From NCBI RefSeq assembly GCF_050920415.1, contig NZ_CP169309.1: 64,000 bases of DNA. One strand, written 5' to 3'. The position numbers and the translations under genes are program-made. This DNA comes from Escherichia coli. GTDB lineage: Bacteria > Pseudomonadota > Gammaproteobacteria > Enterobacterales > Enterobacteriaceae. Of this stretch, positions 32,685 through 49,274 are shown piece after piece. Every line of letters starts with the position of its first letter. The first letter of the stretch is position 1. The notes beneath the pieces are model-generated. The model saw only the letters and a program-made list of their open reading frames with translations. It was not told the origin of the DNA and did no database searches.

Positions 32685-33539
32685 ATGACTGACAAAATGC
32701 AAAGTTTAGCTTTAGCCCCTGTTGGCAACCTGGATTCCTACATCCGGGCAGCTAACGCGTGGCCGATGTTGTCGGCTGACGAGGAGCGGGCGCTGGCTGA
32801 AAAGCTGCATTACCATGGCGATCTGGAAGCAGCAAAAACGCTGATCCTGTCTCACCTGCGGTTTGTTGTTCATATTGCTCGTAATTATGCGGGCTATGGC
32901 CTGCCACAGGCGGATTTGATTCAGGAAGGTAACATCGGCCTGATGAAAGCAGTGCGCCGTTTTAACCCGGAAGTGGGTGTGCGCCTGGTCTCCTTCGCCG
33001 TTCACTGGATCAAAGCAGAGATCCACGAATACGTTCTGCGCAACTGGCGTATCGTCAAAGTTGCGACCACCAAAGCGCAGCGCAAACTGTTCTTCAACCT
33101 GCGTAAAACCAAGCAGCGTCTGGGCTGGTTTAATCAGGATGAAGTCGAAATGGTGGCCCGTGAACTGGGCGTAACCAGCAAAGACGTACGTGAGATGGAA
33201 TCGCGTATGGCGGCACAGGACATGACCTTTGACCTGTCTTCCGACGACGATTCCGACAGCCAGCCGATGGCTCCGGTGCTCTATCTGCAGGATAAATCGT
33301 CCAACTTTGCCGACGGCATTGAAGATGATAACTGGGAAGAGCAGGCGGCAAACCGTCTGACCGACGCGATGCAGGGTCTGGATGAGCGTAGCCAGGACAT
33401 TATCCGCGCACGCTGGTTGGACGAAGACAACAAGTCCACGTTGCAGGAACTGGCTGACCGTTACGGTGTTTCCGCTGAGCGTGTGCGCCAGCTGGAAAAG
33501 AACGCGATGAAAAAACTTCGCGCTGCTATTGAAGCGTAA
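32685..33539 (+). CDS. rpoH: RNA polymerase sigma-32 heat-shock factor RpoH
   Basis: 284-aa [54 protein letters not shown]... Confidence 0.95.
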
Positions 33540-33558
33540 TTACCGCTGTTAAGCAGAG

Positions 33559-33592
33559 AACCCTGGATGAGAGTCCGGGGTTTTTGTTTTTT
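33559..33592 (+). terminator. rpoH intrinsic terminator
   Basis: Stem AACCCUGGA/UCCGGGGUU (one G-U pair) followed by TTTTTGTTTTTT. Confidence 0.7.
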
Positions 33593-33810
33593 GGACCTCT
33601 ACAATAATCAATTACCCCCTCCGACAAAACGCCAATCCCCACGCAGATTGTTAATAAACTGTCAAAATAGCTATTCCAATATCATAAAAATCGGGTATGT
33701 TTTAGCAGAGTATGCTGCTAAAGCACGGGTAGTCATGCATAAAACGAAATAAAGTGCTGAACAACAACATCACAACACACGTAATAACCAGATGAATGGG
33801 GATTCTCAGG

Positions 33811-34914
33811 ATGAATATAAAGGGTAAAGCGTTACTGGCAGGATGTATCGCGCTGGCATTCAGCAATATGGCTCTGGCAGAAGATATTAAAGTCGCGGTC
33901 GTGGGCGCAATGTCAGGTCCGGTGGCCCAGTACGGTGACCAGGAGTTTACTGGCGCAGAGCAGGCGGTTGCGGATATCAATGCTAAAGGTGGTATCAAAG
34001 GCAATAAACTGCAAATCGTAAAATATGACGATGCCTGTGACCCGAAACAGGCGGTCGCGGTGGCGAACAAAGTCGTTAACGACGGCATTAAATATGTGAT
34101 TGGTCACCTCTGCTCTTCATCAACGCAGCCAGCGTCTGACATCTACGAAGACGAAGGCATTTTAATGATCACCCCAGCAGCAACCGCACCAGAGCTGACC
34201 GCCCGTGGCTATCAGCTGATCCTGCGCACCACCGGCCTGGACTCCGACCAGGGACCGACGGCGGCGAAATATATTCTTGAGAAAGTGAAACCGCAACGCA
34301 TTGCTATCGTTCACGACAAACAGCAGTACGGCGAAGGTCTGGCGCGTGCAGTGCAGGACGGCCTGAAGAAAGGCAATGCTAACGTGGTGTTCTTTGACGG
34401 CATCACCGCCGGGGAAAAAGATTTCTCAACGCTGGTGGCGCGTCTGAAAAAAGAGAATATCGACTTCGTTTACTACGGCGGTTATCACCCGGAAATGGGG
34501 CAGATCCTGCGTCAGGCACGCGCGGCAGGGCTGAAAACTCAGTTTATGGGGCCAGAAGGCGTGGCTAACGTCTCGCTGTCTAACATTGCGGGCGAGTCAG
34601 CTGAAGGGTTGCTGGTAACCAAGCCGAAGAACTACGATCAGGTTCCGGCGAACAAACCAATTGTTGACGCGATCAAAGCGAAAAAACAGGACCCAAGCGG
34701 CGCGTTCGTCTGGACCACCTACGCCGCGCTGCAATCTTTGCAGGCGGGCCTGAATCAGTCTGACGATCCGGCTGAAATCGCCAAATACCTGAAAGCGAAC
34801 TCCGTGGATACCGTGATGGGGCCGCTGACCTGGGATGAGAAAGGCGATCTGAAAGGCTTTGAGTTCGGCGTATTTGACTGGCACGCCAACGGCACGGCGA
34901 CCGATGCGAAGTAA
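33811..34914 (+). CDS. livJ: Periplasmic Leu/Ile/Val-binding protein LivJ (367 aa; in-frame ATG at 33796 also possible)
   Basis: Signal peptide [23 protein letters not shown] then [20 protein letters not shown]. Confidence 0.9.
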
Positions 34915-34974
34915 TCATTAATCGGCAACTTTGGGTTGCCGCCAAATTGCTAATATCGAGTACGCATGCTTCAT

Positions 34975-35073
<99 letters not shown>

Positions 35074-35114
35074 AATTTCTCGTTGGTCATCACTTTTGAA
35101 ATCAAACTTGACGA

Positions 35115-35498
35115 TTAACGCTTCTCCCAGCCGCCCTGTTGTGCCGTAAACCCCAGCGCCTGCATAAACGCCGTCATCACGCCGCGATCTTCCACGCCTG
35201 CATCCGCCATCCACCAGCCTGAAACGCCAGGATTGTTACGCAAAACCTCTTCCAGCAGATATTGCCCCACACCGCGACGTCGGGTGACTTCCCGCACGCG
35301 CAGGGAATCCAGTGCCCCCTCGGTGCCGTTTAAGGTTACCCGCACGGCCGCGAGCAGGCGCTCGTTAAAACGCGCGGCGTAGATGCGGTGGTTATCGTCA
35401 ACCTGTAAAGAGGAAGGGGAGTACTCCGGCCAGATCTTTTGCAGATCAATCCGGTCCTGGTCGCTAAAGTGTTCTAAACGAATGATGGTCAGCTTCAT
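35115..35498 (-). CDS. panM: GNAT-family PanD maturation factor PanM (YhhK)
   Basis: 127-aa ORF, synteny between livJ and livK; acetyltransferase-like sequence. Confidence 0.8.
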   Translation of the reverse strand: MKLTIIRLEHFSDQDRIDLQKIWPEYSPSSLQVDDNHRIYAARFNERLLAAVRVTLNGTEGALDSLRVREVTRRRGVGQYLLEEVLRNNPGVSGWWMADAGVEDRGVMTAFMQALGFTAQQGGWEKR

Positions 35499-35921
35499 GG
35501 GAAACCCGTGTAAATCACAAAAGTGGAACCAGTGTAGCGAAATAATTTAATCGGAGGCTTTCTCTTTTTTATTTCTTTTGGCAGGTGATTAATTTTTTAA
35601 CAGCAATAATTACAAATTAAAAACATTAGAGAATGAAAAATGTCCAGCATAATCCCCTGAATGGTAGTGAATTATTCCGCCCTTTGTACCGTTATTTTAT
35701 GCTGACAACGGCGCTTTTTTCTGTTTATCTATCAATAAATTCAGAATATTATCTGTTCTTAATCGACTGAAAAATAGGGATTTTAATCGCTATTATCACA
35801 AAACACTGCGCTAAACCCTTAATCAGACAGGCAAAAACAGTGCAGTATAAAAAAAGTACAGTCTGATTTGTTAACACATAAAAACAAAGCAACACAACAT
35901 CACGAATGGGGATTTTTGACT

Positions 35922-37031
35922 ATGAAACGGAATGCGAAAACTATCATCGCAGGGATGATTGCACTGACAATTTCACACACCGCTATGGCCGACGATATTA
36001 AAGTTGCCGTTGTCGGCGCGATGTCCGGTCCGATTGCCCAGTGGGGCGATATGGAATTTAACGGCGCGCGTCAGGCGATTAAAGACATTAATGCCAAAGG
36101 GGGAATTAAAGGCGATAAGCTGGTGGGCGTGGAATATGACGACGCCTGCGACCCGAAACAAGCCGTTGCGGTCGCCAACAAAATCGTTAACGACGGCATT
36201 AAATACGTTATTGGTCATCTGTGTTCCTCCTCTACTCAGCCTGCTTCAGATATCTACGAAGACGAAGGTATTTTGATGATCTCGCCGGGGGCGACCAACC
36301 CGGAGCTGACCCAACGCGGTTATCAACACATCATGCGGACTGCCGGGCTGGACTCTTCCCAGGGGCCAACAGCGGCAAAATACATTCTTGAGACGGTGAA
36401 GCCCCAGCGCATCGCCATCATTCACGACAAACAACAGTATGGCGAAGGGCTGGCGCGTTCGGTGCAGGACGGATTGAAAGCAGCCAATGCCAACGTCGTC
36501 TTCTTCGACGGTATTACCGCTGGTGAGAAAGATTTCTCCGCGCTGATCGCCCGCCTGAAAAAAGAAAACATCGACTTCGTTTACTACGGCGGTTACTACC
36601 CGGAAATGGGGCAGATGCTGCGCCAGGCCCGTTCCGTTGGCCTGAAAACTCAGTTTATGGGGCCGGAAGGGGTGGGTAATGCGTCGCTGTCGAACATTGC
36701 CGGTGATGCCGCCGAAGGTATGTTGGTCACTATGCCAAAACGCTATGACCAGGACCCGGCAAACAAAGGCATCGTTGATGCGCTGAAAGCAGACAAAAAA
36801 GATCCGTCCGGACCTTATGTCTGGATCACCTACGCGGCGGTGCAATCTCTGGCGACTGCCCTTGAGCGTACCGGCAGCGATGAGCCGCTGGCGCTGGTGA
36901 AAGATTTAAAAGCTAACGGTGCAAACACCGTGATTGGGCCGCTGAACTGGGATGAAAAAGGCGATCTTAAGGGATTTGATTTTGGTGTCTTCCAGTGGCA
37001 CGCCGACGGTTCATCGACGGCAGCCAAGTGA
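35922..37031 (+). CDS. livK: Periplasmic leucine-specific binding protein LivK (369 aa)
   Basis: Signal peptide [23 protein letters not shown]; ~80% identical to LivJ by eye. Confidence 0.9.
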
Positions 37032-37039
37032 TCATCCCA

Positions 37040-37064
37040 CCGCCCGTGAAATGCGGGCGGTTTT
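37040..37064 (+). terminator. Intercistronic hairpin/attenuator between livK and livH
   Basis: CCGCCCG-TGAAATG-CGGGCGG followed by TTTT, 9 nt after the livK stop. Confidence 0.6.
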
Positions 37065-37078
37065 AGAAAGGTTACCTT

Positions 37079-38005
37079 ATGTCTGAGCAGTTTTTGTATT
37101 TCTTGCAGCAGATGTTTAACGGCGTCACGCTGGGCAGTACCTACGCGCTGATAGCCATCGGCTACACCATGGTTTACGGCATTATCGGCATGATCAACTT
37201 CGCCCATGGCGAGGTTTATATGATCGGCAGCTACGTCTCTTTTATGATCATCGCCGCACTGATGATGCTGGGCATTGATACCGGCTGGCTGCTGGTGGCG
37301 GCGGGATTCGTCGGCGCAATCGTCATTGCCAGCGCCTATGGCTGGAGTATCGAACGTGTGGCTTACCGCCCGGTGCGTAACTCTAAGCGCCTGATTGCGC
37401 TCATCTCGGCAATCGGCATGTCTATCTTCCTGCAAAACTACGTCAGCCTGACTGAAGGTTCGCGCGACGTGGCGCTACCCAGCCTGTTTAACGGTCAGTG
37501 GGTTGTGGGCCATAGTGAAAACTTCTCTGCCTCTATTACCACCATGCAGGCGGTGATCTGGATTGTTACCTTCCTCGCCATGTTGGCGCTGACAATTTTC
37601 ATCCGCTATTCCCGCATGGGGCGCGCCTGTCGTGCTTGCGCGGAAGACCTGAAAATGGCGAGCCTGCTTGGCATCAACACTGACCGGGTGATTGCGCTGA
37701 CCTTTGTGATTGGCGCGGCGATGGCGGCGGTGGCAGGTGTGCTGCTCGGTCAGTTCTATGGCGTAATTAACCCCTACATCGGCTTTATGGCCGGGATGAA
37801 AGCCTTTACTGCTGCGGTACTCGGTGGGATTGGCAGTATTCCGGGAGCGATGATTGGCGGCCTGATCCTGGGGATTGCGGAAGCGCTCTCTTCTGCCTAT
37901 CTGAGTACGGAATATAAGGATGTGGTTTCATTTGCCCTGCTGATTCTGGTGCTGCTGGTGATGCCGACCGGTATTCTGGGTCGCCCGGAGGTAGAGAAAG
38001 TATGA
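37079..38005 (+). CDS. livH: Branched-chain amino acid ABC transporter permease LivH
   Basis: 308-aa hydrophobic ORF, operon position. Confidence 0.95.
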
Positions 38006-49062: not shown

Positions 49063-49152
49063 GCGATCAGGAAGACCCTCGCGGAGAACCTGAAAGCACG
49101 ACATTGCTCACATTGCTTCCAGTATTACTTAGCCAGCCGGGTGCTGGCTTTT
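49063..49152 (+). ncRNA. ryhB: Iron-responsive small RNA RyhB
   Basis: 90-nt sequence GCGATCAGGAAGACCCTCGCGGAGAACCTGAAAGCACGACATTGCTCACATTGCTTCCAGTATTACTTAGCCAGCCGGGTGCTGGCTTTT matches RyhB as recalled, with terminator hairpin and U-tail; lies between yhhY and yhhX as in K-12. Confidence 0.9.
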
Positions 49153-49274
49153 TTTTTGATCTTTCGTTTTCAATTTATCCACGGGAAGTGCTTGTGATCG
49201 TTATGCGCACTCCAGTAGGAACCACGTCCGCTTTGCGCTAAGGTGTAAATAATCACCTTAAAAAGGACGAAATC

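Follow-up and report, generated by a model that had tools for sequence, protein, structure and literature searches.

The window, a stretch of 64,000 nucleotides from Escherichia coli, was found to carry the chromosome segment rpoH-livJ-panM-livKHMGF. Within it, the stretch 33400-37100, annotated with rpoH, livJ, panM, livK and livH, was matched by 5398 E. coli genomes across at least 80% of its length. This liv region of the strain showed 100% identity to only one complete genome (strain MFDS1022581) and 95-99% identity to most others; the livK leader was nonetheless that of K-12. The 65-nt livK leader was 100% identical in K-12 MG1655, and at least 4301 of 5424 E. coli genomes shared the whole leader unchanged. 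The two binding-protein genes are paralogues, with 77% amino-acid and 74% nucleotide identity between LivJ and LivK. The features of the two genes and their leaders are listed in Table 1.

Other features of the window were also recorded. The RyhB sRNA gene was identified at 49092-49156 (+) as a full-length match to Rfam RF00057 (83.1 bits, where the gathering score is 55). Sub-threshold matches to naRNA4/CssrE (RF02564) were found on both strands at 34968-35116, between livJ and panM; the best, at 40.4 bits, fell short of the gathering score of 59.5, and they look like REP-type repeats. In the divergent panM-livK intergenic region, a terminator-like hairpin with a T-run, TGCTGACAACGGCG CTTTTTTCTG, was located at 35700-35722 (+), and the sequence around it was kept in other genera.

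Table 1. Genes and leader features of livJ and livK in the window (positions relative to the start codon in brackets).
Feature	Position	Strand	Description
livJ leader, GcvB R1 pairing site	33764..33776 (-47..-35)	+	13-nt perfect complement of GcvB nt 64-76, ACAACATCACAAC
livJ leader, GAATGGGGATT block, Shine-Dalgarno region	33794..33804	+	exact-word match to livK block
livJ CDS	33811..34914	+	Leu/Ile/Val-binding protein, livK paralogue; RefSeq start ATG 33811
livK promoter, candidate -10 hexamer CATAAA	35877..35882	+	inferred by eye from conserved promoter-like block
livK 5' leader, CA-rich stretch	35881..35903	+	21/23 nt A or C (91%): 14 A, 7 C, 1 G, 1 T
livK mRNA, predicted GcvB R1 pairing site	35888..35905 (-34..-17)	+	18-bp unbroken helix with GcvB nt 65-82: 16 Watson-Crick and 2 G:U pairs
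livK leader, GAATGGGGATT block	35904..35914	+	common to livJ; holds Shine-Dalgarno GGGGA (35908-35912), 9 nt 5' of ATG
livK CDS	35922..37031	+	leucine-specific periplasmic binding protein, 369 aa; first gene of livKHMGF; RefSeq start ATG 35922

Positions 35881-35921 read AAAACAAAGCAACACAACATCAC, GAATGGGGATT and TTTGACT, directly followed by the livK ATG, so that the CA-rich element and second block reported in the earlier note were present exactly as described. The 3' end of the CA-rich stretch was 4 nt short of the Shine-Dalgarno GGGG and 19 nt short of the ATG. Four ACA triplets were counted in this stretch (within 35884-35899), and its 5' end (about 35880-35888) showed the ARN triplets AAA-AAC-AAG, which could, speculatively, serve as an Hfq (ARN) site.

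Blocks common to the livJ and livK leaders were determined by exact-word and longest-common-substring analysis, a pairwise MAFFT alignment of the leaders having misaligned the CA blocks. The word ACAACATCAC, found in the livJ leader at 33764-33773 and also in the livK leader, had exactly two matches on both strands of the 64 kb with 0.10 expected, and two matches were reached in none of 100 shuffles. Exact copies of GAATGGGGATT on both strands of the window were likewise confined to the livK and livJ leaders. When composition-matched shuffles of the livK leader were compared with the livJ leader, 49 of 5000 gave a common block of at least 10 nt, and 16 of 5000 gave a block of at least 11 nt. 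Since shuffles rarely gave common blocks of at least 10 nt, the two collinear blocks just 5' of the paralogous start codons were far more than chance would give. Over their first 90 nt the two coding sequences showed only 61% identity while 21 leader nt were identical, and the leader blocks are thus islands of identity; conservation reaching beyond the coding sequence had been claimed before and was borne out. The further statement that the livK leader mirrors that of livJ was right as to content, both blocks being common, and wrong as to layout, as the blocks were contiguous in livK (35894-35914) and 20 nt apart in livJ.

The livK leader did not have significant structure, with a fold z of -0.88. 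The unpaired probability of the predicted GcvB site was about 0.65-0.70 and the Shine-Dalgarno sequence was also mostly unpaired in the ensemble. The leader matched no Rfam family, whether gathering thresholds were applied or E-values up to 1 were allowed. No leader peptide ORF was found upstream of livK, where a TTG at 35868 was a mere in-frame extension. A riboswitch, an attenuator or another structured leader at livK was ruled out by the lack of an Rfam match, the fold z and the lack of a leader peptide ORF.

The GcvB sRNA sequence used was checked against E. coli genomes, where it was matched at 100% and was present in 5425 of the 5426 searched; at identity of at least 99% gcvB was found in 5389 of the 5425 matching genomes, and the gene is located outside the window. 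Both CA blocks were complementary to one segment of the G/U-rich R1 seed of GcvB, nt 64-82. The livK site, AGCAACACAACAUCACGA, contained a perfect 14-nt core, CAACACAACATCAC, at 35890-35903 opposite GcvB nt 67-80. R1 complements were sought by contiguous-complement scanning because a tiled RNAduplex scan of the window failed to discriminate, GC-rich tiles with long interior loops scoring equal to the true site. Complements of at least 10 nt to GcvB nt 60-92 were restricted to the livK and livJ sites on both strands of the 64 kb (128 kb). The GcvB duplex with livK had an energy of -33.7 kcal/mol, which none of 1000 dinucleotide shuffles reached; the duplex with livJ had -28.4 kcal/mol, a value that 8 of 1000 reached. 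The CA-rich element of the livK leader is therefore very probably a binding site for the GcvB R1 seed, and the shared post-transcriptional control site that had been suspected from the conserved leaders is supported by the complementarity of both CA blocks and by the published K-12 interaction data for both listed R1 targets. For the second block this holds in part, as GAATGGGGATT was mainly a ribosome-binding site and not a separate control element.

GcvB, an sRNA that depends on Hfq, represses transporters of amino acids and peptides under plentiful nutrients, and livJ and livK were reportedly described as its targets in Salmonella Typhimurium by Sharma et al. in 2007 (Genes Dev). The GcvB-livJ and GcvB-livK pairs from that work are benchmark pairs for IntaRNA and other target predictors. 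In the IntaRNA paper livJ, in common with argT and gltI, is bound upstream of its ribosome-binding site, and the livJ site found here fits this published binding. Both livJ and livK are listed among the ABC-transporter targets of the GcvB R1 seed by Miyakoshi et al. 2021 (PMC9299463, Table 1), where the status of both is 'Verified' for Salmonella and 'Conserved' for E. coli, so that the sRNA-dependent regulation proposed for this element is documented. The same table gives, for MG1655 derivatives, RIL-seq chimera counts of 16/0/179/85, a CLASH count of 12 and a MAPS enrichment of 10.2 for livK, and RIL-seq chimera counts of 80/49/191/547 and a MAPS enrichment of 22.4 for livJ. Because the 65-nt leaders are identical, these K-12 data apply directly to livK of the window. 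Compensatory-mutation proof is known only from Salmonella. Overall, control of livJ and livK by GcvB through C/A-rich leader elements is already known, and the element at 35881-35903 is livK's already described target site for GcvB R1.

Comparison with other GcvB targets showed both likenesses and differences. Salmonella Typhimurium and E. coli have the same two target genes, the same R1 seed, a C/A-rich site in the 5' leader and a livJ site upstream of that gene's ribosome-binding site. The E. coli livK site adjoins the ribosome-binding site, and its pairing (14 nt perfect, 18 bp once G:U is allowed) exceeds in length the 9-bp anchor of most other genera. The C/A-rich, distal element of gltI (at about -45) is, like the livJ site, an R1 site a long way 5' of the start codon, whereas the livK site is proximal to the Shine-Dalgarno sequence. 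The gltI element, a GcvB target site, doubles as a transferable translation enhancer, and ACA motifs act as translation enhancers at the GcvB target sites of yifK and dppA (Yang et al. 2014, PMC3879156); the liv elements were compared with gltI by sequence only. At yifK and dppA, as at livK, clustered ACA triplets lie directly 5' of the Shine-Dalgarno sequence within the GcvB pairing site, a likeness that for livK was read from the letters alone.

For conservation, a LivK scan with one genome per species produced 78 loci (L001-L051 set against L052-L078). The livJ/livK tandem was found only in Enterobacteriaceae sensu stricto, while Yersinia, Serratia, Hafnia, Pectobacterium, Dickeya, Pantoea, Erwinia and Photorhabdus had a single gene about 75-77% identical to both livJ and livK. 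In the livJ orthologues, the 13-mer ACAACATCACAAC was found at -47/-48 in 32 of 46 and an R1 complement of at least 11 nt in 38 of 46. The conserved livK module in Enterobacteriaceae was ACATCACGA-AYGGGGAT, with ATCAC at -32..-17 in 39 of 51 livK leaders, so that the core of the leader motif was conserved in other genera. RYGGGG at -20..-8 was present in 43 of 51 livK, 45 of 46 livJ and 22 of 24 single-copy orthologue leaders. The anchor ACATCACGA paired with GcvB nt 65-73 in most genera, genera other than Escherichia being judged against E. coli GcvB. The anchor variants ACGTCAC, ACATTAC and ACATCAT still paired via G:U, which is a weak point, as they are mere transitions. The length of the livK helix was 9-19 bp across orthologues; the long CA extension was confined to Escherichia, and the upstream two-thirds of the CA stretch were not kept outside this genus. 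Against composition-matched shuffles, the livK orthologue duplexes showed a median z of -1.85 with 47% below -2, and the predicted duplex was not significantly better than shuffles in about half of the livK orthologues. Single-copy orthologues of Yersinia, Serratia and Hafnia carried R1 complements of 10-13 nt at about -45..-34. As several single-copy outgroup leaders carry such complements, GcvB-type control is probably older than the livJ/livK duplication.

The transcription start of livK would lie near 35888-35891 on the strength of the candidate -10 hexamer CATAAA, and with a start at about 35889 the GcvB site would sit at the very 5' end of a livK leader of about 33 nt. A sigma-70 consensus scan was uninformative, with four matches against 3.2 expected and none at the conserved promoter-like block. 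A literature search for the transcription start of livK and livJ returned Lrp occupancy data only, and pairing coordinates were likewise not found in it. The K-12 RIL-seq and CLASH chimeras (PMC9299463) imply that the livK site is transcribed. Inserts of about 20-190 nt in Citrobacter, Kluyvera, Kosakonia and some Enterobacter always separated the promoter-like block (...TGCTTTTTAACCATAAWAAAACAAAATAT...) from the anchor, which thus remains joined to the ribosome-binding site and, if the promoter-like block is the promoter, lies within the transcript. In three Citrobacter species the leader contained an ERIC repeat (at about 3300-3475 in L004 and about 3380-3475 in L006 and L007), which matched the ERIC2 primer sequence AAGTAAGTGACTGGGGTGAGCG. 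The other inserts, of 20-70 nt, came from Kluyvera, Kosakonia and Enterobacter (L008, L010, L017-L019 and L039) and likewise lay 3' of the promoter-like block and 5' of the ACATCACGA anchor.

Two AT-rich palindromes were observed further upstream, TTTAGCAG-agtatg-CTGCTAAA at 33701-33722 upstream of livJ and CAGAATATTATCTG at 35742-35755 upstream of livK, the latter kept across genera. The consensus for Lrp binding is AT-rich and palindromic. By eye we take both palindromes to resemble it, and they are likely the Lrp operators of the livJ and livK promoters. Lrp occupies the promoter regions of livK and livJ and controls both liv promoters; because GcvB also represses lrp (PMC9299463), the GcvB site of livK lies in a feed-forward loop. 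In addition, an inverted repeat AGCAC...GTGCT (33722-33726 / 33754-33758) flanked the -10-like CATAAA of livJ and covaried to AGCGC...GCGCT in Enterobacter, Lelliottia and Leclercia. This repeat could be a palindrome in the DNA or, at the 5' end of the livJ leader, a short stem in the RNA.

The leader element had been called paralogous to that of livJ, and this is secure for the SD-proximal block only, which was collinear, together with its flanks, in livJ, livK and the single-copy outgroup gene. The CA blocks, in an SD-anchored ungapped comparison of this low-complexity sequence, scored alike at offsets 0 and 20 (10-12 of 17 identical). Their 10-nt identity may have arisen by a 20-nt deletion, or by independent matching of two boxes to the same sRNA seed. 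An SD-proximal box, AATCACAAC, was also found in livJ of Dryocola, Cedecea, Buttiauxella, Mangrovibacter and Shimwellia and in the outgroups. A two-box history can be put forward tentatively and with some doubt, in which the ancestral leader had a distal (about -45..-35) and an SD-proximal (about -27..-20) GcvB box, the distal box survived and was sharpened in livJ of the E. coli clade, the proximal box survived in livK, and Escherichia extended the proximal 9-bp anchor to the 18-bp helix. The CA blocks of livK and livJ would then not be positional homologues, and the ancestral type of leader would still be visible in Dryocola, Cedecea, Buttiauxella, Serratia and Yersinia.

Three other explanations of the leader blocks were weighed against GcvB binding. 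The CA stretch may be an intrinsic translation enhancer only, working through its ACA motifs or as an unstructured standby region, with the GcvB match incidental to its CA-richness. The enhancer activity of ACA motifs at yifK and dppA and of the transferable gltI element (PMC3879156), together with the four ACA triplets of livK, speaks for this, and composition-matched shuffles already paired fairly strongly with the GU-rich R1 (mean of about -20 kcal/mol). However, the perfect runs in livK and livJ were 14 and 13 nt, and runs of at least 12 nt occurred once among 2460 shuffles of the same leaders; both genes also have in vivo GcvB chimera or pull-down signal and are verified targets in Salmonella. 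An enhancer without GcvB binding was thus considered very unlikely, and as enhancer and GcvB functions are known to coexist, the enhancer is a complement to GcvB binding and not a true rival.

It is highly improbable that the shared blocks are operator or promoter elements at the DNA level, for example for Lrp, despite the occupancy of both promoter regions by Lrp and the transcriptional control common to both genes. The blocks were downstream of the conserved promoter-like block and directly adjoined the Shine-Dalgarno sequence, they were CA-rich, and better Lrp-like palindromes were found further upstream (33701-33722 and 35742-35755). Moreover, in several genera inserts of 20-190 nt part the block from the promoter while the block is kept, which fits an RNA element linked to the ribosome-binding site and not an operator tied to the promoter. 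The likeness of the blocks could also be left over passively from the livJ/livK duplication or from gene conversion and have no selected function, as might be expected of tandem paralogues with 74% nucleotide identity and an SD-proximal block collinear across both genes and their single-copy outgroup counterparts. This reading was nevertheless hardly credible: the duplication is older than the divergence of the sampled Enterobacteriaceae genera, the adjoining first 90 coding nt have drifted to 61% while 21 leader nt are still identical, and the livJ 13-mer was unchanged in 32 of 46 genomes, which span many genera. Recent conversion reaching over the start codon was not in evidence, and substitution at a neutral rate in the blocks, tested across genera, was not seen.

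With GcvB binding as the preferred reading, a mechanism can be proposed. The Lrp-controlled livK promoter would produce an mRNA with a short, CA-rich leader, computed to be unstructured, from the presumed start. When GcvB accumulates, R1 nt 65-82 would pair with the livK mRNA at -34..-17, as suggested by the computed complementarity and the published K-12 chimeras and pull-down. This duplex, ending 3 nt 5' of the Shine-Dalgarno GGGGA, would overlap the stretch that the 30S subunit contacts and would mask enhancer motifs of the ACA type. By analogy with Salmonella livK, dppA, oppA, gltI and yifK, initiation at livK would be blocked and the mRNA probably destabilised. At livJ, the complement of the same GcvB segment lies further upstream (-47..-35), so that one seed would co-repress both binding-protein genes; as the seed would bind about 20 nt further upstream there, repression would probably act by enhancer masking as at gltI. 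The GAATGGGGATT block would be the ribosome-binding site, inherited from the leader that preceded the duplication.

That GcvB controls livJ and livK has belonged to textbook knowledge on sRNAs since 2007, and the livK site itself adds nothing new; a reader without tools was nonetheless able to spot a genuine sRNA target site from the sequence. The comparison across genera refines the site in that the minimal conserved livK module is the 9-nt anchor ACAUCACGA plus the Shine-Dalgarno sequence, and the long CA stretch is an Escherichia-specific extension. If the two-box history were true, the 10-nt CA identity between livJ and livK would represent convergence on the same sRNA seed, and the two genes would be repressed by different routes, enhancer masking at livJ and direct occlusion of the ribosome-binding site at livK.
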